Source: Candidatus Binataceae bacterium
Lineage (GTDB): Bacteria; Desulfobacterota; Binatia; Binatales; Binataceae
Length of the DNA stretch: 64,000 nucleotides
NCBI GenBank assembly: GCA_041491005.1
Contig: JBGPUE010000005.1
Span: forward strand, 1,165-65,164
Reading direction: 5' to 3'
Shown one piece after another: positions 39,273-57,982 of the stretch; positions within the stretch are counted from its first letter, which is position 1, and each line of letters opens with the position of its first letter. The position numbers and the translations under genes were made by a program. Below the pieces are notes generated by a model. It made no database searches and was not told where the DNA came from. It saw only the letters and a program-made list of their open reading frames with translations.

Positions 39273-39273
39273 G

Positions 39274-39789
39274 ATGGCCAAGCGCGAGCTTCCGCCCAAC
39301 GTCTGCGTCGCCGACGACGTCCGGCTCGGCGAGCGAGTCCGGCTGGCCGCGTTCGTAAATCTATACGGATGCGAAATCGGCGACGATTCGCGCGTCGGCG
39401 CATTCGTCGAGGTACAGCGCGGCGCGCGCATTGGCAGCCGCTGCAAGATTTCGAGCCATACCTTCATCTGCTCGGGCGTCGAAATCGAGGACGAAGTTTT
39501 CATTGGTCACGGCGTGGTCTTCATTAACGATCGCCGCCCGCGCGCTACCCGTCCCGACGGTGCGGCGCAGACCGAGAGCGATTGGGCGATGGAGCGCACC
39601 ATGGTGCGCCGGCGCGCGTCGATCGGCTCGGGCGCGATCGTCATGTGCGGCGTTGAAATCGGTGAAGGAGCGCTCGTCGGCGCGGGTGCGCTCGTCACGC
39701 GCGACGTGCCGCCCTACAGCGTGGTGGTCGGCTCGCCGGCCCGCGTCCGCGAACGACTCAAACTAACCACTAGTCAGGAGCTTCAATGA
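39274..39789 (+). CDS. Hexapeptide-repeat (left-handed beta-helix) N-acetyltransferase (WbpD/WlbB-like)
   Basis: Tandem [LIV]-G-x-x-x-x hexapeptides are present throughout (IGDDSRVGAFVEVQRGARIGSRCKISSHTFI...). Its size of 171 aa fits. Confidence 0.8.
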   Translation: MAKRELPPNVCVADDVRLGERVRLAAFVNLYGCEIGDDSRVGAFVEVQRGARIGSRCKISSHTFICSGVEIEDEVFIGHGVVFINDRRPRATRPDGAAQTESDWAMERTMVRRRASIGSGAIVMCGVEIGEGALVGAGALVTRDVPPYSVVVGSPARVRERLKLTTSQELQ

Positions 39790-40934: not shown

Positions 40935-40947
40935 GCGGCGCCGAACG

Positions 40948-42384
40948 ATGTTTGCCGGAGAAATAAGAAAGCGCAAGGCGCTGTATGCCGTGGTGGACGC
41001 GCTCGCCCTGATGGTCGCGTTCGCGGGTGCGCTGGCGCTCCACGATCCCGAGGGCGCGCTGGTCAACCGGATGGCAGCCGCGAGTCCGCTATTGCTGCTG
41101 GTTGGCGCGATGGCGCTGGCATTTGCGTGGGTGCTGGTTTTTCACGCCTTCGATCTCTACCGCTTCCGCAACGGCGGTCTGGACGAGAACATCGCGGTGG
41201 CCAAGGCCTGCACCGTCGCCTTCGCGCTGTCGCTGGGATTGGAGTTCTTCGCCCATCTGGATCTATCGCGGCTGAGCCTTCTGAGCGGCTACCTGATGAG
41301 CGTGCCGTTCGTAATGATCGGACGGGCAGCGCTTCGCCGCGCAATCCGGCGCCTGTACGCGGATCCCAAGATCACCATCCCGCTGGTGATCGTCGGCTTC
41401 AATCCGATCGGGCAGTACTTGTGCGATCAGATTCTGGACGATCTCAACCAGTACGAGTTCCTGGGCTTTGTCGATGACGGTGAGCTCGATCGCGCCTACC
41501 GCGGTTATGGCGTGCTGGGCACAATTGATCAGCTGGGCGGCATCGCCGCAGAGCAACCGTCGGTTGAGGCAGCTATCGCGCTGCCCGACGCCCCCCTCGA
41601 ACGCCATCAGCAGGTGATCGCGCTGTGCGAGCAGCATCGCATCCAGTGGCGCCTGGTACCGTGGCTGTTCCGTTCGCTGTCAGCCGGCTTCAAGGTCGAC
41701 ATGGCGGGCATCATCCCCTTGATCGGGCCGCGCAGCTGCAACATCGAGGGACTCAACTACGTCATCAAACGCGGCTTCGATATCACGATCGCGTCGATGG
41801 TGCTGATCCTGGCGGCGCCCCTGATGCTGCTGGCAGCGTTGCTGATCTGGATCACGGATGGACGGCCGATCCTGTTCCGCCAGAAGCGGGTGGGGCTGCA
41901 TGGCCGCTCCTTCGAATTCCTGAAGTTTCGCACGATGCACAACGACGCCGGTGACCAGGTGCATCGCGAGTACGTCAAGGACTGGATCCAGAAGAACGGT
42001 TCATCCGCGCAAACTAACGGCAACGGCGAGAAGGTCTTCAAGCTCACTTGCGATCCGCGCATCACGCCGCTGGGCCGCTGGCTGCGCCGCTTCAGCATCG
42101 ACGAGCTGCCGCAGATCATCAACGTGCTGCGCGGCGAGATGAGCCTGATCGGTCCGCGCCCGGCGCTGCCCTACGAGCTGGAGCTCTATCGGGATTGGCA
42201 CCGGCGCCGGCTTGACGCCCCGCCGGGTATCACGGGCCTGTGGCAGGTCGGGGGCCGCAATCAGCTCGGCTTCGACGATATGGTCCGGCTCGATATCGAA
42301 TACCTCGAAGGATGGACGCTGGCAGGCGACCTGCGCATCCTCGCGCGGACTCTGCCCGCGCTCTTCCATGGAAGAGGCTATTGA
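40948..42384 (+). CDS. Undecaprenyl-phosphate sugar-1-phosphate transferase (WbaP/EpsB-like priming glycosyltransferase)
   Basis: It has N-terminal TMs, a central CoA-binding-like region and the C-terminal bacterial sugar transferase domain (KRGFDITIASMVLILAAPLMLLAALLIWITDGRPILFRQKRVGLHGRSFEFLKFRTM ... LIGPRPALPYE). Confidence 0.85.
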   Translation: MFAGEIRKRKALYAVVDALALMVAFAGALALHDPEGALVNRMAAASPLLLLVGAMALAFAWVLVFHAFDLYRFRNGGLDENIAVAKACTVAFALSLGLEFFAHLDLSRLSLLSGYLMSVPFVMIGRAALRRAIRRLYADPKITIPLVIVGFNPIGQYLCDQILDDLNQYEFLGFVDDGELDRAYRGYGVLGTIDQLGGIAAEQPSVEAAIALPDAPLERHQQVIALCEQHRIQWRLVPWLFRSLSAGFKVDMAGIIPLIGPRSCNIEGLNYVIKRGFDITIASMVLILAAPLMLLAALLIWITDGRPILFRQKRVGLHGRSFEFLKFRTMHNDAGDQVHREYVKDWIQKNGSSAQTNGNGEKVFKLTCDPRITPLGRWLRRFSIDELPQIINVLRGEMSLIGPRPALPYELELYRDWHRRRLDAPPGITGLWQVGGRNQLGFDDMVRLDIEYLEGWTLAGDLRILARTLPALFHGRGY

Positions 42385-42413
42385 ACACCGCGTCGAACAA
42401 TTCCACGCCCGGC

Positions 42414-43895
42414 ATGAAGGGCGAGCGTTCGCTGTGGTCGAGTTTCGCGCGCGGCGTACGCGACAACCTGCTGGCGGAATTCGGCGTCCAGGCCATCCGG
42501 CTGGGCGGATTCGTGCTGCTCGCGCGCGCGCTGGACCCGTCTGACTTCGGATTGTTCCGCGCGCTGCTCGCGGTCACTGCGATTTGGGCCTTGGCCAGCG
42601 AAGCAGGCATCCCCGATGCGCTCATCCAGCGCGAGGATCTGACTGAGCGCCACGAATCGACCGCCTGGTGGATGAGCATCGGCTTGGCCCTGTTTTCCGC
42701 GTCTACGCTCTACGCCTGCGCGCCGCTTGTCGCGCGGCTGATGCAGATGCCGTCGCTGACCTGGTCGCTGCGCCTGCTGAGTATCCCGCTCTTCATGGAA
42801 GGTACATCCGCCGTCGCCAATGGCCTGCTGAGGCGGCGGCTGGAGTTCGGCGCACTGGCGAAGGCGGATGTATTCGCCGAGATCGGATTCCTGGCTTGCG
42901 CGATGGCGCTGCTCGAATTCGGTATGCCGCGATGGGCGCTGCCGGCCGCACTGGCCTTACGCTTCACAATCCATGCGCTGGCTGTCTGGATCGCGGCGCG
43001 CTACGTGCCGCGCTCGGCGCCGCAACTGGCCGCGGCGCGCGATCTCGGCAACTTCTCGATGCGCGTGTTGGGCGGGCGCATCCTCGCCACCGCATCCGCC
43101 AACGCCGACTATCTAATGGTCGGGCGGCTGCTCGGCAGCCAGGCGCTGGGCTTTTACGGGATGGCCTGGGACCTGCTGCGCTTCATCCCGGATCGACTGC
43201 ACAAGGTCGCTGGCCGCGTGGCGCTGCCGGCCTTCTGCCGCATCGCGGATCGCAACGAAGAGCTGGCGCAGGCGTTTCGTGATTTCATCTCGTACATCAG
43301 CCGTATCGTGCTTCCAATCGTCGTATGCGCGGCGGTCGCGGCACCCGAAATTATCGGCGGGATCTACGGCCAGAAGTGGGTTGGCGCGGCGATGCCGCTG
43401 CGGCTGCTCTCAATCGGGCTCGCGCTAGGCGGACTTCGCTTCCCGATCGGCGCCATCTTCTATGCGAAGAACCGTCCGGAATTCGATATCTATCTGCACA
43501 GCATGCGGCTGGCCCTGATCGTTACGACGATCAGTCTGGTCGCGGGCGCCGGACTGTATGGCGTCAGCGCGGGCATGAGCGCGGTCGAGACGGTGGTCAG
43601 CTTCGGCGGATTCTGGCTGGCATGCGCCCCAATCGGGCTCGGCCTCCTGAGCCTCGCGGCCGCATGCATGCCGGGCCTCAACGTCGCGCTGTGGTGCGGG
43701 CTGGCGACTGCCATTGGACGCGCGATCGTGATGGCGGCGGGAATTAGCGGTGCGGCCGCACTGCCGGTGATCATAGCCCCACCCGCGCTGGTCTTCTGCT
43801 GGCTCCAGCTAGGCACCGCACGGCAACTGGCCACGATGGCCTTCAGGCCCAAGAGCATCGATCTGACCGCCAACGTGGCGGGAGGGCAGGCATAA
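42414..43895 (+). CDS. Wzx-like polysaccharide flippase (MOP superfamily)
   Basis: It has about 12-14 TM helices and a polysaccharide-biosynthesis-protein-like N-terminus (GVRDNLLAEFGVQAIRLGGFVLLARAL). The start is chosen at the first ATG after the upstream stop. Confidence 0.7.
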   Translation: MKGERSLWSSFARGVRDNLLAEFGVQAIRLGGFVLLARALDPSDFGLFRALLAVTAIWALASEAGIPDALIQREDLTERHESTAWWMSIGLALFSASTLYACAPLVARLMQMPSLTWSLRLLSIPLFMEGTSAVANGLLRRRLEFGALAKADVFAEIGFLACAMALLEFGMPRWALPAALALRFTIHALAVWIAARYVPRSAPQLAAARDLGNFSMRVLGGRILATASANADYLMVGRLLGSQALGFYGMAWDLLRFIPDRLHKVAGRVALPAFCRIADRNEELAQAFRDFISYISRIVLPIVVCAAVAAPEIIGGIYGQKWVGAAMPLRLLSIGLALGGLRFPIGAIFYAKNRPEFDIYLHSMRLALIVTTISLVAGAGLYGVSAGMSAVETVVSFGGFWLACAPIGLGLLSLAAACMPGLNVALWCGLATAIGRAIVMAAGISGAAALPVIIAPPALVFCWLQLGTARQLATMAFRPKSIDLTANVAGGQA

Positions 43896-43897
43896 TT

Positions 43898-44962
43898 ATG
43901 GGCGCCCCCGCGCATAACATCGCCCACGTGGACGCAGCTGAGATGGAGCTTCAGTTCCGGCCCTATAGCGAAGCGCGCGAGTCATGGCGGGAACTGGCCG
44001 CGAGTACGCGCGGCGCGACGCTGTTCCATCGCGAACCCTGGCTTGAACTGCTGAGCGAGACTCAGGGCGTAAAGCTGTTCGTCGCCTCCGTAGGTCAGGG
44101 CGATCATCAAGCCGCGTGTCTGTTCGGCCGCTCTCATTCGCGCTTCTCGCGCCGGTTGGTGGCTTTACCATCGTCGGATTCATGCGAGCCGCTGGCGACC
44201 GATGCCGAGGCCGCGGCGGCGCTGCTCGACGCGCTGGTGCGAAGCGAATACGCCCGCGACGGGCTGGAGATCCGCGGCGTGGCGGCGCCGGCGCCATGGC
44301 GGCTGGTGGAATGCTTTGCGGACTGGTCAATCGACTTCACGCGCCCATACTCGATGATCGAGCGCGATACCGCAGAGAACTACCGTCGCCAGCTCAAGCG
44401 GGCGCGGCGAGCGGGCTTCAGCATCGATTGCGGTCGCAGCATCGACTACCTCGAGCGGTTCTATTCACTGCAGCTGCAAACGCGCCGCCGGCTGGGTGTA
44501 CCGCCGCAGCCGCTGGAGTTCTACCGGCAGGTTCACCGGGTGTTCCGGGCCCATGGTGCGATCGAGATTTGGATCGCGTCGCAGGGCGGCCGCGATGAGG
44601 CGGCGCTGGTACTGCTGCGCGACGGCTACGAGCTGCATTACAAATGGGGCGCGCGCCGCGATGACATGAGTCAGGGCGCCAACCACGTTCTCTTCGCCAG
44701 CGTCTTCGAGCATTACGCGGGCAAAATCTGCCGGCTCAACCTTGGCCGTGCCGACACGCGCAACCAGGGCCTGAGCCGCTTTAAGCGCGAACTGGGCGGC
44801 CGCTCGCGCTCGATCCCTTACGCCTTCTATCCCAAGGCACCGGCCAACATTAGCGCCGAAGTGCTCAGCGGCCCGCGCAAGATGGTCTCGCAGCTATGGT
44901 GTCATTTGCCGCTGGGCGCCACGCGCGTGCTCGGCGCGATCGCATACCGGTTGCTGGCATGA
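43898..44962 (+). CDS. FemAB-like / BioF2-like acyltransferase (resembles the PEP-CTERM-system-associated FemAB family)
   Basis: It is 354 aa with the layout FHREPWLELL...LFVASVGQGDHQAACLFGRSH ... LHYKWGARRDDMSQGANHVLFASVFEHYAGKICRLNLG, consistent with the GNAT-like Acetyltransf_6 fold of FemAB relatives. Confidence 0.55.
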   Translation: MGAPAHNIAHVDAAEMELQFRPYSEARESWRELAASTRGATLFHREPWLELLSETQGVKLFVASVGQGDHQAACLFGRSHSRFSRRLVALPSSDSCEPLATDAEAAAALLDALVRSEYARDGLEIRGVAAPAPWRLVECFADWSIDFTRPYSMIERDTAENYRRQLKRARRAGFSIDCGRSIDYLERFYSLQLQTRRRLGVPPQPLEFYRQVHRVFRAHGAIEIWIASQGGRDEAALVLLRDGYELHYKWGARRDDMSQGANHVLFASVFEHYAGKICRLNLGRADTRNQGLSRFKRELGGRSRSIPYAFYPKAPANISAEVLSGPRKMVSQLWCHLPLGATRVLGAIAYRLLA

Positions 44963-45816
44963 GGAAGTATCTCGCCATCACACCGGCCCGCGATGAGCAG
45001 GCGCTGCTGCCCAACCTGATCGCCTGCATGGTGAGTCAGACGGTGCGGCCCGAGCGCTGGATTGTCATCGACGATGGGTCGGGCGACGCCACCGGCGAGA
45101 TCATCGATCAGGCCGCCGCCCAGCATCCCTGGATCGAGGCGCATCACGTTCCACGCGGCAAGCCGCGCGCCCCAGGCGGCGAGTCGGTTTTGATGAACTA
45201 TCTGCCCGCCGAGCTGTGGGGACGGTTCGACTTCATCCTGCGGCTCGACGCGGACCTCACCTTTGGCCCCGAGTATGTCGATCATCTGATGCGGGAGTTC
45301 GCGCGCGATCCCAAACTCGGTATCACGGGCGGAACGCTCTTCGAGCCGGCCGGCAATCATTGGCGCGAGGTGCGCCAGCCGGCTTTTCACGTACGCGGCG
45401 CGACCAAGATGTACTCGCGTGCCTGTTTCGGCGCGATCGGAGGACTGGAAGCGGCGCTGGGCTGGGACACTATCGATGAAGCTCGCGCGATGATGCTCGG
45501 CTTTCGCAGCCGCAGCTTCCGGCATATTCGCGCTTTTCATCACCGGCCTGCGGGCAGCGCGGCCGGCCGATGGCGCGGTCATCTGGCGGCCGGCCGGGCC
45601 GCATTTTACGCTGGCTACTCGCCGGTCTACATGATGGCGCGTGCACTCAAGCGAGCGACGGAGCCGCCGTGGGTAACTAGCGGTGTGTTGCTGCTGGTGG
45701 GGTACTTCGAAGGATATTTGCGCCGGCGGCAGATGGTGGACGACCCGAAGTTGGTGAAATTCGTGCGGCGGCAGCAACTGCGCCGGCTGGCCAAGATGGA
45801 CTCGGTATGGCGCTAG
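44959..45816 (+). CDS. Family 2 glycosyltransferase
   Basis: It has the N-terminus LAITPARDEQALLPNLIACMVSQTVRPERWIVIDDGSGDATGEII (GT-A fold with DxD-like DDGS) and a 4-bp ATGA overlap with the upstream gene. Confidence 0.75.
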   Translation: MRKYLAITPARDEQALLPNLIACMVSQTVRPERWIVIDDGSGDATGEIIDQAAAQHPWIEAHHVPRGKPRAPGGESVLMNYLPAELWGRFDFILRLDADLTFGPEYVDHLMREFARDPKLGITGGTLFEPAGNHWREVRQPAFHVRGATKMYSRACFGAIGGLEAALGWDTIDEARAMMLGFRSRSFRHIRAFHHRPAGSAAGRWRGHLAAGRAAFYAGYSPVYMMARALKRATEPPWVTSGVLLLVGYFEGYLRRRQMVDDPKLVKFVRRQQLRRLAKMDSVWR

Positions 45817-47027
45817 CCGCAACCAACTCCATGGCAAGCAGGCCGCAGCCTGCAGGCTCCAATCCGGACTGGAGCAACGACGCATTTACGTTCTGGAAGT
45901 TGCCCACCCACTCCCGGGAGGCGCTCGAGCCATCGATCGTGGCCTCGGTGGCGATCGCTGAATGGCACATGTTCGAACGCTATCTGCCCGAGCGCGATCG
46001 CCATCAGCACTCGGTGCTGCGCGCCTACTACCTGCTCAAACGCTTCGTGCCGCTATGGCTGCGGCATGCGGGCAACTCTCTGATGGCTCGTTCGCGCCGC
46101 GTCGATTTTCCGGCTTGGCCACGGGAAACCTCGCTGATGGATTTCTGGACCGAATGGTTGGAGCAGAGCCTGATCGCGATGAAAGTCACCGAAGGCTGGC
46201 ACATCGGGTTCTGGCCCGAGGGCCGCGACTGCTGTATCGCGCTCACCCACGACGTCGAGAGTCCGTCCGGATTCGCCCGCATGGAGCGGATGGCCGAGAT
46301 GGAAGCGCATTACGGTTTCCGTTCGGCTTGGAACCTGCCGCTGGATCAGTACCCGATCGACTGGAAGATCGTCGAGCGTCTGCGTGCGCGTGGGTTCGAA
46401 TTCGGCGCGCATGGGCTCAACCACGACGGGCGCCTGTTCCGCTCGCGCGAGGACTTCCAGGAGCTGGCGCCGCGCGTGGAGCGGCTTGCGCGCGAGCACG
46501 GGTTGCGCGGCTTCCGCTCGCCCTCGACGCTGCGCAACGTCGAGTGGATACCGACGATGGATTTCGACTACGACGGCAGCTTTTCGGACACCGATCCGTA
46601 CGAGCCTCAGCCGGGCGGCACCTGCAGCATCTTCCCGTTCTTCCTGGGCGCGATGGTCGAGCTGCCCTACACGCTGGCGCAGGATCATACCCTGACGACC
46701 CTGCTCCATCGCTGCGCGATCGACGTGTGGCGCGCAAAGGCCGACTGGATCGCTTCGCTGGGCGGGATGATCCTGACGCTGGTGCATCCCGACTACTCAG
46801 GCGCGGGCGCCGGCCTGCGCGAATACGAGGACCTACTCAAGCATCTGAGCCGCATCCGCTCGGCGTGGCGCGCCTTGCCAGGCGAAGTCGCGGCATGGTG
46901 GCGGCGGCGGGCGCTGATGGAACTCAGCATCGAGGCCGGGCGTCCGGTGATAACAGGCCCCGATATCGCCGGAGGTGTCGCCCGGCGATTGGCGAGCGAA
47001 CCGCTGGCTCATCGCAGGTCGACGTAG
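45807..47027 (+). CDS. Polysaccharide deacetylase-like protein (CE4-related, D-V-E variant motif)
   Basis: The segment CIALTHDVESPSGF is followed by GFEFGAHGLNHD, consistent with NodB-homology motifs where DVE replaces DD. The assignment is from motif recall, so moderate. Confidence 0.5.
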   Translation: MALAATNSMASRPQPAGSNPDWSNDAFTFWKLPTHSREALEPSIVASVAIAEWHMFERYLPERDRHQHSVLRAYYLLKRFVPLWLRHAGNSLMARSRRVDFPAWPRETSLMDFWTEWLEQSLIAMKVTEGWHIGFWPEGRDCCIALTHDVESPSGFARMERMAEMEAHYGFRSAWNLPLDQYPIDWKIVERLRARGFEFGAHGLNHDGRLFRSREDFQELAPRVERLAREHGLRGFRSPSTLRNVEWIPTMDFDYDGSFSDTDPYEPQPGGTCSIFPFFLGAMVELPYTLAQDHTLTTLLHRCAIDVWRAKADWIASLGGMILTLVHPDYSGAGAGLREYEDLLKHLSRIRSAWRALPGEVAAWWRRRALMELSIEAGRPVITGPDIAGGVARRLASEPLAHRRST

Positions 47028-47029
47028 CT

Positions 47030-48199
47030 ATGGCGCGCTTCCTGATTGTCGCCTACACGCACTTCTACCGTGACGGGCGCGTCAAGCGTCACGCCGAAGC
47101 GCTCGCGCGCCGCGGCGACTCGGTCGACGTCATTTGCCTGGCGAGCGAGCTGCGTGGCGAGACGCTTCCAGGCGTCAATGTAATCGGGCTCGGCATCAAG
47201 CGTTACCGTGGCGGCAGCCGCCGCGCCTACATGAGCAGCTACGTGGGATTCTTCGCGAGCGCCGCAGCTCGCGCGACCCTCCTCTCGCTCAAGCATCGCT
47301 ACGATGTCGTGATCGTCTGCACGATGCCCGATGCCGCAGTGATCACCTCGATTGTGCCGCGTCTGATGGGCAGCAAGGTCGTGCTCGACGTGCATGACAC
47401 CATGCCTGAATTGTACCAGGACAAGTTCGGGGGAACGCGTGGCGCCGTCGGTGCGCGGCTGCTGATGTGGGAAGAGCGCGCTAGCGCCCTGCTGGCTCAT
47501 CGCGTGGTGGCAGTTCACGATCTGCACAAGCAGCGCCTCATCGAGGCTGGTATTCCAGCGGACAAGATCCGGGTCGTGATGAACCTGCCCGACGCGCGCA
47601 TCTTCAAACCATCATGCAATGGCGGGCCGCCGATCGAGGGGCCCTTCCAGCTGGTGTGCCACGGCACCATCGCCTACCGATTGGGGATCGATGTCGCGAT
47701 CCAGGCGATGGACCTGCTGCGTGAGCGGATTCCAAACGCCTGTCTCAAGATCATCGGCGATGGTGACTATCTGCCGCAGGCGAAAGAACTGGCGAATCGG
47801 CTGAAGCTGGGTTCGCGCGTTGAGTTCCAGCGTCCGGTGCCGGTGGAGGAGTTGCCCGCGATTCTTAAGGAGGCCTCGCTCGGCTTGGCGCCGAATCGGG
47901 CCAGCAGCGCGACGCATCTGATGTTGCCAGTCAAGGCAATGGAGTACGCCGTACTGGGAATTCCGGTCGTTGCCTCGCGGCTGCGAACGATAGAACATTA
48001 TTTCGGTAGTGCGGTCCGATACTTCACGCCGGGTGATGCGCGTGAACTCGCCGACGCGATCGAGGATCTGTATCGGCATCCCGAGGAACGTTCGCTGCTG
48101 GCTCGCCGCGCGAGCCTGATCGTGAGGGATTACGACTCGCAGGCGCGGCGCGAAGAGCATCTGAAGGCGATCGACCCTTTGATGAACGAGGAGGCATGA
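47030..48199 (+). CDS. Family 4 (GT-B, group 1) glycosyltransferase
   Basis: The N-terminal domain is MARFLIVAYTHFYRDGRVKRHAEALARRGDSVDVI. The C-terminal EX7E-type region is VVASRLRTIEHYFGSAVRYFTPGDARELADAIEDL. Confidence 0.8.
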   Translation: MARFLIVAYTHFYRDGRVKRHAEALARRGDSVDVICLASELRGETLPGVNVIGLGIKRYRGGSRRAYMSSYVGFFASAAARATLLSLKHRYDVVIVCTMPDAAVITSIVPRLMGSKVVLDVHDTMPELYQDKFGGTRGAVGARLLMWEERASALLAHRVVAVHDLHKQRLIEAGIPADKIRVVMNLPDARIFKPSCNGGPPIEGPFQLVCHGTIAYRLGIDVAIQAMDLLRERIPNACLKIIGDGDYLPQAKELANRLKLGSRVEFQRPVPVEELPAILKEASLGLAPNRASSATHLMLPVKAMEYAVLGIPVVASRLRTIEHYFGSAVRYFTPGDARELADAIEDLYRHPEERSLLARRASLIVRDYDSQARREEHLKAIDPLMNEEA

Positions 48200-48963
48200 C
48201 AGTGGAAGAGGGCGTGACTCTGGTGGTCGGATTAGGGGAAGTCGGTGGTGCGCTGGCTGAAATCCTGGAGCGCAAGGGACCAGTCGCACGCCACGATATC
48301 CAGCCGGTCCAGATTCCAGGGCCGATCAACGTGATGCACATCTGCTTCCCATTTAAGGATGTACGCCAATTCGAGAGTCTGTCGCTCTCCTACATCCGCC
48401 GTTTCAATCCCTCGCTGGTGATCATCAACAGCACAGTGACGCCGGGCACGACGCGCGCGATCGCGCGATCCAGCGGCGCCGCGGTCGCGTACTCGCCGGT
48501 ACGCGGCAAGCACGTCAAGATGGTCGAAGATCTTTTGCATTACGATAAATTCGTCGCGGCGCCTGACGCCGAGACGGCGCGGCGCGCTGAAGAGCATCTC
48601 CGGGCGCATGGGCTCAAGACCCGCCACGTCGCGAAGCCCGAGACGCTGGAACTGGCCAAGCTCGCCGAGACTACCTATTTCGGCGTGCTGATCGCCTATG
48701 CGCAGGAGCTCAACCGGTATTGCGAGCAGGTTGGCGCTGACTATTCCGAAGCGATCAAGTTCTTCGAAGAGGTGCAATTCTTCCCGCGCTCGGAGTACTT
48801 TCCGGGCTTCATCGGCGGGCATTGCGTGATGCCCAACATCGAGATCCTGCTCAAGATCCTGCCGGCGCCGTTGCTCAATGCCGTGGTCGATTCCAACCAA
48901 CGGCGTAGCGCGGAGCTCGAGGCCCAGTCACCGCCCAGGAAGGTTTCCAACGCCAAGCCGTGA
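48196..48963 (+). CDS. Short UDP-glucose/GDP-mannose dehydrogenase-family protein (NAD-binding plus central domain only; no C-terminal UDP-binding domain)
   Basis: It has a Rossmann N-terminus LVVGLGEVGGALAEIL, a central-domain helix ETLELAKLAETTYFGVLIAYAQELNRYCEQVGADYSEAIKFFEE and FIGGHCVMPNIEIL (cf. the GGSC catalytic-Cys motif). It ends at 255 aa. Confidence 0.4.
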   Translation: MTVEEGVTLVVGLGEVGGALAEILERKGPVARHDIQPVQIPGPINVMHICFPFKDVRQFESLSLSYIRRFNPSLVIINSTVTPGTTRAIARSSGAAVAYSPVRGKHVKMVEDLLHYDKFVAAPDAETARRAEEHLRAHGLKTRHVAKPETLELAKLAETTYFGVLIAYAQELNRYCEQVGADYSEAIKFFEEVQFFPRSEYFPGFIGGHCVMPNIEILLKILPAPLLNAVVDSNQRRSAELEAQSPPRKVSNAKP

Positions 48964-50360
48964 CCTACCTAACCAAGGGTGACGCCTGGCTGCTGAGCGA
49001 TCGGCGGCAGGGGAGTTCGTCATCCGCCGCATACCAATTCGCCCGGCTACGTGGGCTGGCCACGCATGAAGTCGATCTTGCGGCAGGCGGGGTTCCCTGT
49101 CTTCAAGGGGGACGGCGAACGCTCGTCGCGCTGGGCCTGGAATTGCTGTCGCATCTTCCACCCGCCCATCTGCAGATTCTAAACAGCGCAGTCCGCGACG
49201 GCGCCACGCTTTACCTCCGTGGAGGGCAGCCCGGCCATCGCGTGTCGCTCGAGCCGTTTTGCAAAACGAATCTGGAGCTCGTCGATGGCCGTGGCACACG
49301 GGATTTTCGCCTCGCCGCGCATCGGCTGGTGCCAAGGGCGCTAGCCGAGGAACGCTTCACCGGCGTGGTCGGCCTGATCAGCGCCGCGGCGTCCCCACCG
49401 GAGCTCGAGCCGCTCGCCTTCGTGATCGATCCGGACGGACGCGAGCGCCCGTTCCTGTTCGCCCTCGAGCTGGGCAGCGGCGCCGTGATCGTTGATTTGA
49501 TGCCGAATCGCGCGGCGGGCGATCCCCGGATGCCAATTGAGTGGCGGATGGCCGACTCAGCCTTGCTCGCATACGACCTTGGCGCGCTAATCGCCGTTGA
49601 TCGCGCCGCCGGCCGCGACCAGGCGCATTTGCCACCGATGAATGTGGTTATCGATGATCGCCCGATCAGTTACGACTACGGTAACGCTGGCCGGCTCCGC
49701 CGATGGCTGGAGCACATGAAGCGGATTTGTCCGGCGGTGCATGTCGACTTCGCGTGGATCCCGGATCAACTCCATCCCAGCCGCAGCTATGTCCAAACGC
49801 TGAAAGATTTCGACGCAGGCTTCATCTGGCACGGACTGCGCCGCCATGTGGACCATCGCACGCTCACCGAATTCGATCGCGAGCTCGCGCAAGGCGAAAC
49901 GATGGTGCGCCGGATCAGCAAAAGCTTCGGCGTGAAAATTCAGCGCGTGATGGTGTTCCCGTTCGAGCGGGCCAACTATCGCGCGCTCAAGGCGCTCAAG
50001 GACGGCAGCTTCAAGACATGCCTGGAGAGTTCCGATCCTTGTCCGCGGCTTGAGGGCTGCGCGATGCTGGGTTTCATGCGCGATTCTACGGCGCTCCACG
50101 ATTCATACGCCGGGGTCTTTCCGATGCTGCGACGCTATTCGGGAAAATCGCTGACCCGTCGGTGGATGCTGGCGAAGACGGCGCTGGGCCTGCCGCTAAT
50201 CGTCGCCGGCCATCCGCATGATATCGGTCTGCGCCGGTTGTCGGCGCTGCGCAATGGCGGATCGCCGGGCTACTTCGATTCGACGCTGCAATTCGCGGCG
50301 GAGAAGGGGATGCAGGGGCGGCCGCTCGAGGCTATTGCCGACGAGTACATAAGAGAATGA
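48960..50360 (+). CDS. Hypothetical protein of the EPS locus (466 aa, no signal peptide recognised)
   Basis: The ORF is long and clean, with a 4-bp overlap with the upstream gene. No family was recognised; it may be a deacetylase-like fold (PMNVVIDDRPISYDYGN ... VDFAWIPDQ). This is speculative. Confidence 0.4.
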   Translation: MTYLTKGDAWLLSDRRQGSSSSAAYQFARLRGLATHEVDLAAGGVPCLQGGRRTLVALGLELLSHLPPAHLQILNSAVRDGATLYLRGGQPGHRVSLEPFCKTNLELVDGRGTRDFRLAAHRLVPRALAEERFTGVVGLISAAASPPELEPLAFVIDPDGRERPFLFALELGSGAVIVDLMPNRAAGDPRMPIEWRMADSALLAYDLGALIAVDRAAGRDQAHLPPMNVVIDDRPISYDYGNAGRLRRWLEHMKRICPAVHVDFAWIPDQLHPSRSYVQTLKDFDAGFIWHGLRRHVDHRTLTEFDRELAQGETMVRRISKSFGVKIQRVMVFPFERANYRALKALKDGSFKTCLESSDPCPRLEGCAMLGFMRDSTALHDSYAGVFPMLRRYSGKSLTRRWMLAKTALGLPLIVAGHPHDIGLRRLSALRNGGSPGYFDSTLQFAAEKGMQGRPLEAIADEYIRE

Positions 50361-50408
50361 ACCCGCGCCTCGACTTGGATTCAAGCGCAAAGCGAATGGA
50401 GATCTCCG

Positions 50409-51866
50409 GTGTTCGCTGCTGAAGAGCGCCTCAACCAGCGCAGCCCCACGATGGGCATCATGCCGATCGTGGGGATCGCGGTGGTCATGTTCGCGATGCT
50501 CGTCGCGAGCACCTCGCCGCGTTCGGCGCTGATCATTGTCGTCCCCGTGGGCGCGGCCACGCTCCTGTGGCTGGTACGCTACACGGCCCTTAATCGGCAA
50601 TGGCTGATCACGGCGTTGCTGCTTAACGAAATGCTGTTGTCCAGTGGCCTGCTGCCGATCGCTGAGGATCAGCGCCCGATGCTGCGCTATCCGCTGACTT
50701 TCATGTTCTGCCTGCCCATTCTCATCCCGGTATTGCGATCCGGCGTCCTCCTCAAGGGTGGGTTCAAGTACTATGCGCTTTATCTCGCGTGGTGTTTCGT
50801 GAGCGTCGGCTATTCGCTCCTGCCGGTCTATTCCGCCGGCCGCGCTATCGGATCGACGCTCCTGTTTATGGCATGCGCATCGATGGTCGTGGAGGTTGAG
50901 GATCGCGATAGCGGGCAGCGGCTGATCCGGAACTATTTCATCGGCGGCGCCATCGTGATGGCGCTCACCGCGGCTGTTTTCGTCTGGCTGCCACGCACCA
51001 TGACCTGGTCGCAGCCTCAGCTGTGGGACGATACGCGCTCCTTCCTGTCGCGTTTCCAGGGAATCTTCGGCACCCCCAATCAGATGGGTGAGGCGATGCT
51101 GGCCACGGTTGGCGCTGGATTGGCTTTCTGGCCTTCGGCCAATCGCAACTGGCGCCGCGTAATCGGCGTTACGGTTGCAGCAGCATTCGTCTTCGAAGGA
51201 TTGGCCGACTCACGCTCCTCGTTCCTCGCGATCATGATGGGCATCGTGACCTACCTGGTATGGCGCTACCGGGCGCGCGGCCTGCTTATCTGCATGGGAC
51301 TGGGTGCGATGCTCGCGCTGGCCGCCACCATGATCGATCCGGACTACATCACACGCGGCGACATCGGCACGCTTACCGGCCGCTCGGAGGTCTGGGACTT
51401 TTCCATCCGCAGCATCAAGGATCACCCTATACTCGGCTTCGGCTACGAGGTCGAAGGTCAAATCCTGAAGAGCAAGTACTTCTCCTCTTGGGCGTTGCTG
51501 TGGGACGAGGGACCGCGCTCCTCACTACACAACGGCTATATCGCGCGTATGGTCGGTGTCGGGGTGCCAGCCTTCCTGTTCTGGTGCTGGCTGTTCTTTC
51601 GCTCATGGATCTGGCTATTCAGGCAGCAGGAAGATCCTTGGAACCTCAAGCCGATTGCTTTGCTGATTATGATCCCGCTGGTGATCCTCAACATGAGCGA
51701 GAGCACAGCGATGGATGGGCGCGCCTCGGTCGGCCTGTTGGGCCTGCTGATCTGGTGCCTGATCGAGAAATATCGTGTTGCCGCCACTGAGGCGGAGGCG
51801 ATTCGCCGGATCGCTGAACCGGCCTACAGACCGCCAGTGATCGCGGCGCTTCGCGGCGCTTCCTGA
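50409..51866 (+). CDS. O-antigen ligase/polymerase-family membrane protein (Wzy-like)
   Basis: It has about 10-12 TM helices, a large loop with LADSRSSFLAIMMGI, and a downstream HNGYIARMVGVG, the conserved Arg and His-Asn motifs of the Wzy_C domain. Confidence 0.65.
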   Translation: MFAAEERLNQRSPTMGIMPIVGIAVVMFAMLVASTSPRSALIIVVPVGAATLLWLVRYTALNRQWLITALLLNEMLLSSGLLPIAEDQRPMLRYPLTFMFCLPILIPVLRSGVLLKGGFKYYALYLAWCFVSVGYSLLPVYSAGRAIGSTLLFMACASMVVEVEDRDSGQRLIRNYFIGGAIVMALTAAVFVWLPRTMTWSQPQLWDDTRSFLSRFQGIFGTPNQMGEAMLATVGAGLAFWPSANRNWRRVIGVTVAAAFVFEGLADSRSSFLAIMMGIVTYLVWRYRARGLLICMGLGAMLALAATMIDPDYITRGDIGTLTGRSEVWDFSIRSIKDHPILGFGYEVEGQILKSKYFSSWALLWDEGPRSSLHNGYIARMVGVGVPAFLFWCWLFFRSWIWLFRQQEDPWNLKPIALLIMIPLVILNMSESTAMDGRASVGLLGLLIWCLIEKYRVAATEAEAIRRIAEPAYRPPVIAALRGAS

Positions 51867-51877
51867 CACGACGGACA

Positions 51878-53371
51878 ATGCCGGCCCTCTTTCGTATCGT
51901 TGCCTTCGCATCGCTGGCCGAGCTTGCCGCAGTGGTTATCGCAGGGCGCGGCATCGGAGCGGGAGGGTTCGTCTCAGTCGCTTCCAGAGCCAGCGCCGCG
52001 CAAATTGACGGGCGCAGCATCTTCGTCGATCCGGCCGGAGACGATTCCAACGACGGCGCCAGCCCCGCCCATCCGTGGCGAACGATCGCGAAGGTCAACG
52101 CCGCTGCATTGGGCGCCGGTGACACGATCCGGTTCAAGCGCGGCGGACTGTGGCGCGAGACCCTGGAGCCGCATGGCAGCGGCGCGCCCGGCCGTCCGAT
52201 AACCTTCACCGTCTATGGCAGCGGACGGGCACCAATCATCTCGGGCGCTGACGCGGTCACCGGATGGACCGCATTCAGAGACGGCGCCCGGTTTTCGGCT
52301 GCGCTGGCCAAGCAGCCCAACAACGTCTACCTCGATGATTTGCTCGATTGGGGGCTCGGCCCAGCCGCTTCGCCGGACGCGATGCAACCCGGAAGCTGGT
52401 GCTGGCAGGCGGGCACTCTTTATGCGCGGCTCGCCGACGGGTCCAATCCCGCAGCGCATTTGATCGAAGCCGCCGTGCGCCCGTACGGCACACATACGGT
52501 CGACAAGAGCTACATCGTATTCGATGGGCTGTGGGTGCGGCGTACCGCCGGATGGGGAGTCTTCTTCTATTCGGACACCTCGCCCGAACAGAGCACCGAC
52601 ATCGTGATTCGCAATTGCATCGTCACCCAGACCGGTACCGGGACGCTCGATGACGGGCGCTACTACAACGCGATTCACGTTTCGCGCGCCGCGGCGCCCC
52701 GCTACGAGAACAACACGATCTCGTACTCGGGCGGGCATGGCAACGCGATCAATTCGCAACTCGCTGACGGCGCGGTGATCGCCGGCAATCGCGCCGACCA
52801 CTTCAACCATCACGGCTTCGATGTCAAGAATTCGCAGTCGGTGCTGGTGCGCGGCAACATCGCGCACGATTCGAATGAGGCCAACGGCATCTACTGCGAA
52901 CACACGCGCGCGATGCGGGTCGAAAACAACATCGTCTACAACCTCACCGCGTCGGCCAGCGGCCGCGGCTCGGGCGTGCAGATAGATGACGGCTCCTCTG
53001 ATGCGCGCATCTTCAACAACTCCGTTTTCAACGTATTGACCGGGATCTACCTGACCGTGGCCGGCACGGTGGCGATGAACAACGCGATCAGCCAGGCCCG
53101 CTACGCGCTCAGAACCAGCGCAGGCGGCATCTTCGACTACAACGATTGGGGCGCGGGAGCGCGCATCTACTTCAACGGCACTGAATACAATCTCGGCCAG
53201 TGGCGCGCCCTCGCCGGTCACGATCACGACATCGGAGCCGATCCGATGTGGGCCGGGCCACAAACCGGCGATTTCCGGCTGCTGCCGGGCTCCCCCTGTA
53301 TCGGAGCAGCTACCAACACCGGCACCCCGTTCAAGAGCGGTTCGCATGATCTGGGCGCGAAATCGCCCTAG
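51878..53371 (+). CDS. Secreted right-handed parallel beta-helix repeat protein (pectin-lyase fold; possible polysaccharide lyase/hydrolase)
   Basis: It has an N-terminal hydrophobic segment and repeated NxxIxxN / HGxxxNS-type coils (IRNCIVTQTG, NNTISYSGGHGNAINS, GNIAHDSNEANGIYCE, NNIVYNL, NNSVFNV). Confidence 0.7.
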   Translation: MPALFRIVAFASLAELAAVVIAGRGIGAGGFVSVASRASAAQIDGRSIFVDPAGDDSNDGASPAHPWRTIAKVNAAALGAGDTIRFKRGGLWRETLEPHGSGAPGRPITFTVYGSGRAPIISGADAVTGWTAFRDGARFSAALAKQPNNVYLDDLLDWGLGPAASPDAMQPGSWCWQAGTLYARLADGSNPAAHLIEAAVRPYGTHTVDKSYIVFDGLWVRRTAGWGVFFYSDTSPEQSTDIVIRNCIVTQTGTGTLDDGRYYNAIHVSRAAAPRYENNTISYSGGHGNAINSQLADGAVIAGNRADHFNHHGFDVKNSQSVLVRGNIAHDSNEANGIYCEHTRAMRVENNIVYNLTASASGRGSGVQIDDGSSDARIFNNSVFNVLTGIYLTVAGTVAMNNAISQARYALRTSAGGIFDYNDWGAGARIYFNGTEYNLGQWRALAGHDHDIGADPMWAGPQTGDFRLLPGSPCIGAATNTGTPFKSGSHDLGAKSP

Positions 53372-53379: not shown

Positions 53380-53567
53380 TGATTCGCGAAGCTGTCGACT
53401 TTGATACGTTTTTCCGTTGTAAGGCGGGCAGTTCTACGCTAAGCTCTACAAGACTTAGCTAAAATCAACTAAACAGAGACGAAATGACCACAATTGAGAC
53501 GAGACCTCCGACAGTAGTTGCTGTCTAGCCTGCAATAAGAAAGACCTCCAGGGAGTTTTAAAGCACT
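53380..53567. promoter_or_regulatory. AT-rich upstream island of the large secreted-protein gene carrying AGCTAA-type motifs
   Basis: It reads ttgatacgtttttccgttgtaagg ... ctacgctaagctctacaagacttagctaaaatcaactaaacagagacgaaatgacc. There is a GC drop relative to the flanks. Confidence 0.3.
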
Positions 53568-56500
53568 GTGACGGCGAGCCGAATCGGAACCACGCGAACA
53601 GTCGGAGCATTGCTGTTTACATTTCTGCTCGCTATGGCCTTCGTCGCGGGCGAAGCGCTGCGCGCAGTCTCAGCGCAGAACCCCACCCAGATTGAGAATG
53701 CGCGCCCCGGGACGACGGACTGGGATCTTGGCAATGCCGCCACCAATAAGGAGATTTCAGGCTACGCGTCGCTGGCCAGCGTCAATCGCGGCGGGCAGAT
53801 CAAGCTCTACGTCCGCACGACCGCTCCCAGCTACACGATCGATATCTTTCGCGCCGGTTGGTATGCGGGTCTTGGCGGCCGTCATGTCTTCGGTCCCATC
53901 GCAAAGACCAGCGTAACCCAGATCATCCCGACTCCGGATCCGACCACCGGATACCTCGAATGCAATTGGTCCGATCCGTACGTCTTGACCACCACCAATC
54001 CGAGCGATTCGACTGACTGGCCCAGCGGAATCTATCTGGCCAAGCTCACCGCCTCGACCGGGAAGCAGAGCTACATCGTGTTCGTCGTGCGCGACGACTC
54101 GCGCACTTCCGACGTCCTGTTTCAGTCGAGCGTCAGCACATACCAAGCATACAACGCGTGGGGCGGAAAGTCGCTCTACGATTACAACAGCAACGGCGGC
54201 GTCCCGGCGATCAAAGTCTCCTACAATCGTCCCTACGACGACGGCAATGGCTCTGGCCAGTTCCTGAGCTACGAGTTCAATACTCTCGGCTTTCTCGAGC
54301 AGCAGGGTTACGACGTCAGCTACACGACCAACATCGAGACCCACAACAACGTGCTGTCTCTGTTCGGCCACAAGGCGTTCCTATCCACCGGGCACGATGA
54401 GTACTACTCCTACGAGATGCGCACGAATGTCACGTTCGCGCGTGACTCCGGAATCCCCATCGCGTTCCTCGGCGCAAATGTCTGCTACTGGCAAATTCGG
54501 CTCGAGGCGAGCCCGCTAACCGGCGACCTCTACCGTACCGAGGTCTGCTACAAGGACCTGTGGCCGCAGGACCCGATGGCGGCCAATCCGTCGACCTACT
54601 ACCTGATCACGGGGCGCTGGCGCGACACTCATCTCACCCGAGCTGGTCAGCCCGAAGACGCGCTGGTCGGCGTGATGTACAACGAGTTTCAGCCGGTCGA
54701 CGCCGACCTCGTGATCGCAAACGCTTCGCATTGGCTCTTCAACGGCACCGGACTTACCAACGGCTCGCACCTGACCAAACTACTCGGCTACGAGGCGGAC
54801 CGGATCTACGGCAACGCGCCGTCCAATATCGTCGACCTTGCGCATTCCACCTATCAGCTCAGCGGAACTCAGGTCTCCGACATGACCATCTACACCGCGC
54901 CCAGCGGTGCATTGGTGTTCGCGACCGGATCGCATGAATGGGCCGACGGGCTCAGCAACGTCAGTCCATGGAGCGCGAGTCCATCGCGTGTGAACGCGGC
55001 GGCTCAGCAGGTCACGCGCAATCTGCTGAACCAGTTCCTGAGCACGTCGGCGACACCGACAGCTTCGGCGAGCACCACGGCTACGCCGAGCGCGACGGCG
55101 ACCGCAACCGCTACATCCACCGCTACCGCAAGCGTTACTGCGACAGCGACCGCTACGCCCACCGCAACATCGACGGCTACAGCGACAGCCACCGCCACCG
55201 GCTCGGCGGTTGCGACGCCGACACCTACCGCGACGCTTACGGCGACTGCGACCGCAACAGCCACCGCGACCGCTACGCCTACTTCGACGCCTGGGCCGCC
55301 CGGCGTTATCGCGCTGCGCGGCATAGGCACCGGTAGCACTTCAACTGGCAGTGACCACGTGACGATTACGGTGCCAACCGGAGTGCAGGCAGGTGACGTC
55401 ATGATCGCCCAAGTCGCGGTGCGCGGCGGGACCAGCACCACGATCACGCTCCCTGCAGGATGGGCTCTGGTACGGCGCGACAACTCCGCGGGTACGATCG
55501 CACAGGGCGTCTACCAGCATCTGGTGCCGGCGTCTCCAGCCGAGCCCGCTTCGTACACGTTCAACTTCACCTCGGGCAATGACGCCGCCGGTGGTATCGC
55601 GGCCTACAGCGGCGTCGATACGGTGGTGATCGTCGATGCCAGTGGCGGACAAGGCAACGCCAGCTCGACGGCGGTCACCGCGCCTTCGATCACTGTGCCG
55701 GCCGGACACAACGCTGACCGGGTGCTCGGGTTGTTCACGGTGCCCAACGGCAACACGATCACTGTCCCTGCGGGGACCACGCAGCGCTGGAGTTTCCGCG
55801 CGATCGGGTTCGGGATCGGAATCGCGATGTCGGATGTTGCGCTGAGTAGCAGCGGTCCGACCGGCAATCTGGTTGCGACGGCGGCCACTGCAGGAGCGAA
55901 TATCGGCCAACAGGTTGCGTTGGTGCCGGCGGCGGCCGCGAGTACGTCTACCCCAACGTCGACCTCGACGCCTACGGCGACTCCGACCAATACGCCGACT
56001 GCCACGGCTACCGCGACAGCGACGCCGACGGCTACCGCGACGGCGACTCCGACCAGTACGCCGACTGCCACGGCTACCGCTACCGCCACAGCGACGCCGA
56101 CGGCAACATCAACGGCGACGGCAACGGCCTCCCCGACGGCGACATCGACCGTCACGCCGACGGCGACACCGACCGTCACGCCGACTGCGACGGCCACCGC
56201 CACTGTGACGCCAACCGCTACCGCGACGGCGACACCCACCGCGACGGCAACTGCAACCGCTACCGCGACGGCGACACCCACCGCGACGGCAACTGCAACG
56301 CTTACCGCAACTGCTACCGCGACGCCGACGGTAGTGCCAACTCCGACCGCGACGCCAACGGCGACCCTAACCGTGACGCCGACTGCTACAACCACGCCGA
56401 CACCGTCAGCGACTCCGACCGCTGGCGCCATCACATTGCGCAACGTAGGCACGGGCAGCACGTCCGCGGTGAGTGATCACGTGACCGTCAACGTGCCAGC

Positions 56501-57056
56501 CGGCGTGCAGCCCGGCGACGCAATGATTGCGCAGATCGCCGTGCGCGGTGGAACCGGCACGACCATCACGACGCCGGCGGGATGGACCCTTGTGCTTCGA
56601 ACAGACAGAGCGGGCAACATCGGGCAGGCTGTCTACCGGCGCATAGTGCCGGCGTCACCAGCCGAGCCTGCGACCTATACATGGAACTTTACCGCGGGTA
56701 ACGATGCCGCGGGTGGTATCGCAGCCTACAGCGGCGTCAGCCAAGTCACGCCTGTCGACGCCAGCGGCGGCCAGGGGAACGCGAGCTCAACCAGCATCAC
56801 GTCGCCGTCCATCACGGTCCCGGCGGGCCATACGGCCGATAAGCTGCTGGGATTGTTCACCGTGACGACCAACGCCATCACCGTTCCGGCGGGCACGACG
56901 CAGCGATGGAGTTTCCATGCGGTCGGCTTCGGAATTACGGTCGCGATGTCTGACAAGCCGCTGACTGTGGCTGGCGCGACGGGGACACTGGTCGCGGTCG
57001 CGGGAACAACTGGCGCGAACGTCGGTCAGCAAGTCGCGCTAACCCCGGGTCCATAG
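53568..57056 (+). CDS. Large secreted protein (1162 aa): N-terminal ~470-aa globular domain (possibly DmfA2-like), then two tandem copies of a ~215-aa domain each preceded by a Thr/Ala/Pro-rich linker
   Basis: It has a GTG start with a signal peptide ([26 protein letters not shown]). The N-domain has [16 protein letters not shown] and [13 protein letters not shown]. Copy 1 ([43 protein letters not shown]...) and copy 2 ([43 protein letters not shown]...) are ~75% identical. Confidence 0.7.
55055..55305. repeat. Low-complexity (ACN GCN)-type tandem repeats encoding Thr/Ala/Pro linker 1
   Basis: It encodes [52 protein letters not shown]... The nucleotide-level periodicity is visible (acggcgaccgcaaccgctaca...). 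Confidence 0.6.
55925..56430. repeat. Low-complexity tandem repeats encoding Thr/Ala/Pro linker 2 (~170 aa)
   Basis: It encodes [93 protein letters not shown]... There are many near-identical 6-18 nt units. Confidence 0.6.
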
Positions 57057-57217: not shown

Positions 57218-57454
57218 CTAGTTGCCCTGTTCGGCTGGCTCGCTGCTGCCGTTAACCCGGCAGCGCTCCAAGAAGCCCTCGATATCGTTGCGCCGAAAGC
57301 GCATCGCCCGCCCAATGGAATGGCACGTGAGTTCGCCCCTGCGCACCATCCGATAGACGGTCATTTGAGTGATCTGGAGCAGACTGGCGAGTTGCTTGAC
57401 GGTATAAAACTCATGCCCACCCATCCCACTCACATCTTCAGAAATGCTTCCCAT
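57218..57454 (-). CDS. Small helix-turn-helix DNA-binding protein (excisionase/MerR-like HTH family)
   Basis: It carries YTVKQLASLLQITQMTVYRMVRRGELTCHSIGRAMRFRRNDIEGFL, which matches the excisionase-family HTH pattern. A strong RBS GAGGAGG lies 5 nt upstream of the ATG chosen (MGSISED...). Confidence 0.55.
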   Translation of the reverse strand: MGSISEDVSGMGGHEFYTVKQLASLLQITQMTVYRMVRRGELTCHSIGRAMRFRRNDIEGFLERCRVNGSSEPAEQGN

Positions 57455-57982
57455 CTGACCTCCTCCTCTCAGCATGGAGTTACCTATCAACAAGAACAAA
57501 GCGCCGCAGGTGTGGAAAAGTCAATGGCAGTGTCAACCGCGCGGGAGCTGTTCTGCACAGGAACGATCACGATGCAATAGCGTCGCCGGCGATTGGTCCA
57601 TCGACACGAAGCGCTACTGATGGCGGCTTCTGCGGTTGAGTCAACCGCAATACGCGTCGGTCATAAGCGATTGCTTGCGGTCCGGTGCGCCTATGCGGGA
57701 TGCGGGAAATCGACTCGAAGATTCCTTAGCGCACACGTAACATCCAATACGATCAGGAGGATCAGGTCGTGACTTACGCCCGCTCTGCGGCGCGAACGAC
57801 TTCAGTGCGCGGTGCGCCGTTCGGCGATATCAGCGATCAGTTCGCACCACTGTCGCCCCGCCTTTGGGTATCGCCGGAGTCCGTCACGGCTTGTGGATAA
57901 ATGATCACGCATGTCGATACGGTGGGCGGCTCGTCGCACGCATCGTTCTTGGCGGAGTCGATCGGACCGCGCCAAGGAGGAG

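Follow-up and report, generated by a model that had tools for sequence, protein, structure and literature searches.

A putatively exported dimethylformamidase-like protein with tandem, uncatalogued two-half β-sandwich modules beside an exopolysaccharide cluster of a Candidatus Binataceae bacterium

In a 64,000-nucleotide stretch of contig JBGPUE010000005.1 from a Candidatus Binataceae bacterium (the window, to which all coordinates refer unless another contig is named), the last co-directional gene of a ~20-kb exopolysaccharide (EPS) cluster (53568..57056, + strand) encodes a 1162-residue protein. Its parts follow one another in the order signal peptide, dimethylformamidase (DMFase)-family domain, 84-residue linker, first copy of a module, 164-residue linker and second copy of that module. 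The reading that we favour, and hold tentatively, is that this protein is an exported metallo-amidohydrolase tethered by tandem binding modules, and that its likeliest substrate is the N-acylated amino-sugar polysaccharide of the neighboring cluster. The overall design, in which a catalytic domain is joined through Pro/Thr-type linkers to tandem accessory modules, is classical and introduces no new principle; what is uncatalogued is the function of the exported DMFase-like clade and the tandem two-half module, which has neither a Pfam or NCBIfam model nor a close solved structure.

The DMFase-like catalytic region occupies residues 37-493 (53676..55046, + strand) and consists of an immunoglobulin (Ig)-like subdomain and a ThuA/GATase1-like α/β/α domain. 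Residues 90-463 match the Pfam family DMFA2_C (PF20254) at E 4e-110, with 369 bits against a cut-off of 27, a result that bears out the DmfA2-type resemblance noted for this region in an earlier, sequence-only reading of the same DNA. A profile of 37 homologues matched two solved relatives in the PDB at E 1e-14 to 8e-16, namely N-acetyl-(R)-β-phenylalanine acylase (8HUY, 8I5A; E 8e-16), a protein of ~770 residues with an extra N-terminal region to which the window protein is 22% identical, and the large subunit of Paracoccus DMFase (6LVB; E 1e-14). The fold common to the solved members, an Ig-like domain I together with a ThuA-like domain III, is also found in the N-terminal domain of the window protein. 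Small N-acyl amides are the substrates of both relatives: DMFase hydrolyses N-formyl amides, and the Burkholderia acylase, judged by its name, an N-acetyl compound (a small N-acetyl amino acid).

In DMFase, Fe3+ is bound by Tyr399, Tyr440 and Glu521, the enzyme cannot do without His519, and a buried water molecule is held by Asn547 (PMC7686228). HMMER alignment places Tyr195 of the window protein (codon 54150..54152, + strand) on the Fe ligand Tyr399, and, within the run His276-Asp277-Glu278 (54393..54401, + strand), His276 on His519 and Glu278 on the Fe ligand Glu521; Asn304 (54477..54479, + strand) aligns with Asn547. The DMFase segment that contains Tyr440 was left unaligned by HMMER, and a short query likewise fell short of it; Tyr204 (54177..54179, + strand) is our candidate equivalent, chosen for its distance from R221-P222. 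That pair aligns with DMFase R456-P457, and the distance is one residue off that between Tyr440 and Arg456. Tyr195, Tyr204, His276 and Glu278 are each invariant in 37 of 37 close homologues, and across homologues from many phyla each tyrosine is kept in 79 of 79 sequences and His276 and Glu278 each in 76 of 77, while position 304 is Asn in 64 and Asp in 13 of 77 distant homologues. Because the active-site positions are both aligned and conserved across phyla, the N-terminal domain is, very probably, a working metal-dependent enzyme of the kind that hydrolyses amides.

The window protein falls in a large secreted clade and has more than 2583 relatives at E<=1e-10; the members listed are 50-59% identical to it, measure 466-860 residues and carry variable Ig-like C-terminal tails (Big_7, PKD, ASH). 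The closest genome relatives come from Candidatus Binataceae-type metagenome-assembled genomes (MAGs), Acidobacteriota and Nitrospira, and cultivable organisms with a homologue include Kribbella, Rubrivivax, Ideonella and Peribacillus. A genuine DMFase serving growth on dimethylformamide (DMF) would bear this Pfam family name and these conserved active-site residues, yet such an identity is hardly credible here. The window protein is 22% identical to the large subunit of the Paracoccus sp. DMF enzyme, which has no signal peptide, whereas the window protein is exported and has linkers and two extra modules. Domain II of DMFase, a pentraxin-like unit of 264 residues (74-337) inserted in domain I (PMC7686228), is absent, the segments that align with DMFase residues 5-31 and 337-400 lying ~40 residues apart in the window protein. 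The DMFase large subunit is moreover inactive alone and requires a small subunit (PMC7686228); beside the window gene there is no small co-directional open reading frame (ORF), its neighbors being a 497-residue β-helix protein and an HTH_17 protein, although no search was made with a small-subunit query. Across genomes, homologues of the large subunit occur in 924 and the small subunit in 41.

The gene itself is complete, with a GTG start and a stop codon after 1162 codons, as given by the ORF list and by an independent JGI gene call of the same length on contig L083, a sequence from another sample that is 99.9% identical over 13 kb and was reached through the neighboring M50 protease. An exact-sequence look-up of the 1162-residue product (with a Met start) returned no record. 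A Shine-Dalgarno-like AGGGAG, read from the sequence, lies 12 nucleotides 5′ of the GTG (53550..53555, + strand). Inspection of the N-terminus suggests a Sec-type signal peptide at residues 1-36 (53568..53675, + strand), with a basic n-region (R5 and R10), a 15-residue hydrophobic core at residues 13-27 and an AxA-like site, cleavage being predicted after AVSA (AVSA/QN); the sequence-only reading had likewise called the protein secreted. AlphaFold2 (AF2) models residues 8-32 as a lone helix, and the signal-peptide region is not conserved in homologues, in which conservation starts at about residue 37 with NPxxxEN..PGTxDW.

The remainder of the protein is dominated by two copies of a module of ~205 residues. 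Copy 1 spans residues 578-787 (55299..55928, + strand) and copy 2 residues 952-1162, up to the C-terminus (56421..57053, + strand); a core hidden Markov model (HMM) detects them at E 6.7e-82 and 1.6e-77, respectively. The copies are 72% identical over 209 residues (E 5e-92), close to the ~75% at which the internal duplication had first been put, and 68.9% identical in DNA. With nonsynonymous divergence (dN) at 0.21 and synonymous divergence (dS) at 1.54 (dN/dS ~0.14), the duplication is old, and both copies have been maintained by purifying selection. An AF2 model of copy 1 (pLDDT 95.4, pTM 0.92) contains 12 strands, and alignment of the N-terminal with the C-terminal half by hhalign (probability 84.5%, E 6.9e-6) indicates that the module is in turn a duplication of two ~100-residue halves. 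Each module is thus an ancient pseudo-dimer of β-sandwich halves; the sequence-only reading, which took the repeated unit for a single domain of ~215 residues, missed the duplication within it.

No Pfam family matches either copy or the module core of any of 53 homologues, NCBIfam has no model for it (copy 1 and the whole protein were scanned), and comparison of the module model with PDB structures gave no close solved fold. The claim that the repeated domain belongs to no recognised family therefore stands as far as these three resources reach, none of which yielded a match to a known carbohydrate-binding or Ig-like family, and a named structural relative may still exist outside them. Matches to GEVED, RicinB and T9SS-tail families (E>=0.02) all fell below thresholds and were set aside as noise, and a search of the PDB with the full-length sequence brought up circumsporozoite and antifreeze proteins, which were rejected as artefacts of the low-complexity linkers. 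The best PDB neighbor is the receptor-binding head of the lactococcal phage Tuc2009 (5E7F, 5E7T), but the alignment takes in just 80 of 212 residues, roughly a single half, and its score is too low for a claim of homology.

Scanning 1.84 billion cluster representatives (clusters at 50% identity) with a module profile in HMMER returned 28943 matches at E<=1e-3, 16388 at E<=1e-10 and 3498 at E<=1e-30; the loosest of these counts is an upper bound, because the profile took in some flanking columns. With a core-only HMM, full-length modules were recovered in all 149 of the best representatives, and 147 of these carry two to six tandem copies. The partner domains bear no relation to one another: they comprise GH16, metallophosphoesterase, LCAT-like lipase, GDSL lipase, DUF6701 (MshQ-like, in 20 representatives), a TadE/G-like pilus protein, Ig domains of the Big_9 and cadherin-like kinds, DUF2341, a phage Gp58-like tail protein, a β-helix protein and an RHS-type group (14 segments from ~8 representatives, with a single, weak Pfam RHS match). 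The MshQ-like and other carriers are true module homologues that differ in partner domain, and the pairing with DMFA2_C seen in the window recurs in two of the 149 best representatives (P0206 and P0250). Microbacterium phages carry the module at the N-terminus of a virion-module ‘phosphoesterase’, whose gene is flanked by those for the major tail protein and the head-to-tail adaptor; gp34 of phage Marcie (Gillianvirus; L082, 6920-8479) is an example. The N-terminal half alone is matched by phrog_3329, a phage family of unknown function, and by hypothetical proteins of Mycobacterium and Gordonia phages.

We infer from this distribution that the module is probably a promiscuous accessory unit for binding or anchoring, since one would hardly expect a catalytic domain to be repeated in tandem on such a variety of enzymes; its unrelated partners, its occurrence on phage virions and the phage receptor-binding head as best structural neighbor all point the same way. 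A copy usually has its closest kin in the same protein: copies from other proteins reach at most 63% identity to either window copy, while the two copies of P0206 (562-1046) are 100% identical and the three of contig L003 (6114-8570) 96-99%. Repeated lineage-specific duplication or homogenisation therefore appears to have shaped the family, and the near-identical copies in L003 and P0206 point to a very recent event unless assembly collapsed their repeats. In contigs L001-L003 the reading frame changes between modules, which looks like long-read assembly error. The β-helix protein next to the window gene was considered as a homologue of module carriers (P0228, which NCBI names a β-helix protein, and P0261), a relation left unsupported by a weak, repeat-level match (E 0.005).

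Each module copy is preceded by a linker rich in Thr, Ala and Pro. Linker 1, recognised by composition and codon usage, covers 84 residues (494-577; 55047..55298, + strand; T 42%, A 32%, S 11%, P 10%), and linker 2, recognised by composition and by insertions or deletions (indels) relative to contigs L004 and L005, covers 164 (788-951; 55929..56420, + strand; T 48%, A 27%, P 14%), in agreement with the 80-170 residues first estimated. Short tandem nucleotide repeats had been proposed to encode them. One such repeat is near-perfect (56212..56308, + strand; 42-nucleotide unit, 2.3 copies, 96% match by Tandem Repeats Finder), but the remainder are degenerate, with periods of 12-42 nucleotides and 65-76% match, including the 24- and 36-nucleotide periodicity of linker 1, because mixed codons are used. 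The longest exact repeats measure 14 nucleotides in linker 1 and 46 in linker 2. Two long antisense ORFs that translate as VAVAVA (55004-55483 and 55604-56461, - strand) are non-genes, by-products of the (ACN GCN)n linker coding. Elsewhere in the window neither the two domains nor linkers of this kind occur a second time, and scans with Rfam and for tRNAs gave no match.

Linker length varies widely among relatives of the same architecture, from ~8 residues in P0250, whose linkers of ~18 and 8 residues keep their length across six cluster members, to ~250 in L002, which also has an extra divergent module; L003 has three modules. Such linkers recall the modular cellulases and xylanases of Cellulomonas fimi, in which a catalytic domain is joined by Pro/Thr linkers to carbohydrate-binding modules and linker length differs among relatives. 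The window protein resembles modular glycoside hydrolases in its T/P-rich linkers and tandem β-sandwich accessory modules, and shows the low linker complexity, confident separate module models and spread of linker length that mark modular enzymes.

Two alleles of the gene are found among near-identical strains. The window allele recurs over the whole gene in L083 (6 mismatches, 0 indels, one amino acid change) and, at the 3′ end of copy 2, unchanged in L085 from a third sample. The second allele, represented by L004 and L005 from two other samples, is 83.6% identical to the window in linker 2, with in-frame indels of 36 and 6 nucleotides, and 93.1% identical in copy 2 (dN 0.037, dS 0.18, dN/dS ~0.2); beyond copy 2, identity rises to 99.5% over 3 kb and then to 100% over a further 4 kb. 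Between L004 and L005 the sole difference over linker and copy 2 is one 30-nucleotide in-frame linker indel, and every linker indel observed is a multiple of three. The 3′ part of the gene is thus a local divergence hotspot, for which recombination, faster evolution and strain-chimeric contig ends are candidate causes. Gene conversion of copy 2 by copy 1 gave no clear signal: among the positions at which the alleles mismatch, the copy-1 base is present in L004 at 18, in the window at 13 and in neither at 13. Linker length is free to differ between alleles and lineages, and in this respect the earlier expectation of variable linkers holds; the terms ‘hypervariable’ and ‘slippage-prone’ overstate the case, as the repeats are degenerate, the indels stay in frame and the window allele recurs without indel in L083, so that the linker is not a hypermutable slippage tract of the contingency-locus type.

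Such localised divergence, with copy 2 and linker 2 standing out against flanks of 99.5-100% identity, would also fit an account in which the modules are the functional end of a variable recognition or adhesion protein, binding other cells, surfaces or phage-related ligands and evolving fast under frequency-dependent selection, with the DMFase-like domain secondary. The close similarity of copies within a protein (72% in the window, more in L003 and P0206) and the presence of the module on phage virion proteins and on RHS, Tad pilus and MshQ-like proteins agree with that account. We nonetheless consider it quite unlikely: the dN/dS values both between alleles and between copies denote selection of the purifying and not the diversifying kind, the N-terminal domain strictly conserves its catalytic residues, and three samples share the window allele.

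The substrate proposed under our favoured reading comes from the genomic setting. The co-directional cluster upstream of the gene (33612..53371, + strand; Pfam scans) is of the Wzx/Wzy type and encodes a Poly_export (Wza-like) protein, a GNVR chain-length protein, an AAA_22+LysM ATPase, a GFO_IDH_MocA oxidoreductase, a DegT aminotransferase, a Bac_transf priming transferase, a Wzx flippase, an Acetyltransf_6 (FemAB-like) protein, GT2 and GT4 glycosyltransferases, a fragment of the UDP-glucose/GDP-mannose dehydrogenase family (UDPG_MGDP_dh), a Wzy_C polymerase-like protein and, adjoining the gene under study, the secreted right-handed β-helix protein of 497 residues. Because the gene closes a cluster whose products include the means to make N-acylated amino sugars (DegT, GFO/MocA, FemAB-like acyltransferase), the EPS polysaccharide is the likeliest substrate. 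These genes and that of the sugar-nucleotide dehydrogenase, which lie at 38172-40934, 43898-44962 and 48196-48963, together resemble the WbpA/B/E/D route to di-N-acetylated amino uronic acids. Relatives that share the architecture have Poly_export or GT4 genes as neighbors, and the amino-sugar gene set of the window is found again in another phylum, at a locus of a Ktedonobacterales MAG (L030). There a one-strand run (1997-13028) comprises Acetyltransf_6, Bac_transf, GFO_IDH_MocA, DegT and a CE4 polysaccharide deacetylase, followed by the homologue, a 1357-residue DMFA2_C protein with ASH/Cep192-type Ig domains, and then a methyltransferase.

Several details of the cluster stand apart from this argument. 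The UDPG_MGDP_dh ORF (48196-48963) encodes 255 residues that match the central domain only, so it is perhaps incomplete or its start wrongly called, and three ORFs in or near the cluster (37399-38169, 256 residues; 48960-50360, 466 residues; 62252-63982, 576 residues) have no Pfam match. The AAA_22 ATPase (35924-37393) carries a C-terminal LysM fusion and resembles the ExeA-like ATPases of exosortase-type EPS loci; the protein under study has no PEP-CTERM signal.

In the mechanism that we propose, the exported N-terminal domain would act as a metal-dependent amidohydrolase, the tandem modules would serve as non-catalytic binding or anchoring units that hold the enzyme on polymer or cell envelope, and the extended linkers would give the modules reach. 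The polysaccharide of the cluster would then be de-N-acylated after export, by analogy with PgaB, IcaB, PelA and Agd3. These CE4 and CE18 enzymes are exported and cluster-encoded and remove N-acyl groups after export, and Agd3 has a binding module as well. The proposed role is alike, whereas the fold and metal site are unrelated; at E<=1 no Pfam match to a CE4 Polysacc_deac_1 (NodB homology) domain was found in the window protein. The literature retrieved under DMFase terms concerned DMFase structure or DMF degradation only, and none was found that links DMFA2_C or dimethylformamidase to exopolysaccharide.

A number of observations weigh against this proposal. A 197-bp, AT-richer gap separates the EPS cluster from the gene, and a scan found neither a sigma-70-like site nor a + strand terminator 3′ of the gene; the gene is a candidate member of the operon. 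EPS homologues lie within 8 kb in just 5 of 73 genome loci, and three further contexts of homologues are unrelated to EPS. The CE4 deacetylase at the Ktedonobacterales locus could make a second de-N-acylase there redundant. With respect to the protein, the third Fe ligand, Tyr204, is a putative assignment by spacing, DMFase needs a small subunit of which none is evident at the window locus, and the activity, metal and ligand of the secreted clade are putative throughout. The module, finally, has conserved positions (Glu E82, Ser S130 and an invariant Trp W55) that could give it a catalytic role of its own.

In a different account, the protein is a surface-tethered amidase that scavenges small soluble amides, such as formamides and N-acetyl amino acids or amino sugars, for carbon and nitrogen; the modules would do no more than fix it to the envelope or capsule of the cell that makes it, and adjacency to the EPS cluster would be incidental. 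In its favor, the two relatives of solved structure have small-molecule substrates, the neighborhoods of most homologues are unrelated, with genes that look monocistronic, and the window gene has its own upstream gap. Ig-like or β-sandwich tails are, however, more usual on enzymes that act on polymers or surfaces, and it is such tails (Big_7, PKD, ASH) that homologues typically bear; the recurrence of the EPS gene set around the homologue of another phylum also argues against coincidence. We judge scavenging unlikely.

Downstream, the gene is met by a convergent HTH_17 (excisionase/MerR-type) gene (57218..57499, - strand; Pfam PF12728, E 9.8e-15), called as 78 residues in L004 and L083, so that the position between an EPS locus and an excisionase-like gene is as originally described, with the latter on the opposite strand. 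Beyond it follow an M50-CBS protease, a glyoxalase, an MBL-fold gene and conjugation-type genes. The latter (61393-64000; L004, 5311-10973; L083, 1-3571) encode a 635-residue DUF87/TrwB-like ATPase, a 474-residue protein without a family and a Replic_Relax protein, and here the window and L004 are 100% identical, in contrast to their divergence in the 3′ part of the gene under study.

The adjoining HTH_17 gene, and the DUF87/TrwB-like and Replic_Relax genes a few kb away, could mean that the gene is cargo of a neighboring mobile element and travels with it. In L001, a tyrosine integrase, HTH_17 and AAA_25 lie directly 5′ of a homologue that starts at about residue 202 of the N-terminal domain, while in L002, from a second sample with downstream genes in common (L001, 3107-6730; L002, 4094-7999), the gene is intact with Poly_export upstream; the L001 arrangement suggests that an element inserted itself in the gene or right beside it. 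Integrase and HTH_17 abut the homologue there, but the element truncates it instead of carrying it. As the window gene is in addition co-directional with the EPS cluster and convergent with HTH_17, and as housekeeping-type genes (M50 protease, glyoxalase, MBL) separate it from the conjugation genes, transport as cargo is very unlikely; it would in any case concern provenance and leave function unsettled.

These findings bear on how two large groups of proteins are read. Homologues of the DMFase large subunit are present in ~4% of complete prokaryotic genomes and are routinely read as ‘DMF degraders’. Since the large subunit almost always occurs without the small one, most family members must do something else, and since the catalytic site is preserved in the exported clade, a natural substrate other than DMF must exist for it; the amino-sugar EPS context provides a concrete and testable candidate. 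The module is a very common extracellular building block, and a formal definition of it would give an annotation to ‘hypothetical’ proteins in their thousands, among them phage virion, RHS and MshQ-like proteins. We give a small but appreciable chance to the joint proposition that the module founds a large undescribed family of glycan- or envelope-binding domains and that the secreted clade is a new, non-CE4 class of EPS de-N-acylases with a Tyr/Tyr/Glu metal site. Were both parts true, soil bacteria and actinobacteriophages would be using these modules in tandem to tether extracellular enzymes, toxins and pilus proteins, and the difference between alleles in the module region would be the mark of selection acting on the binding partners of the cell surface.

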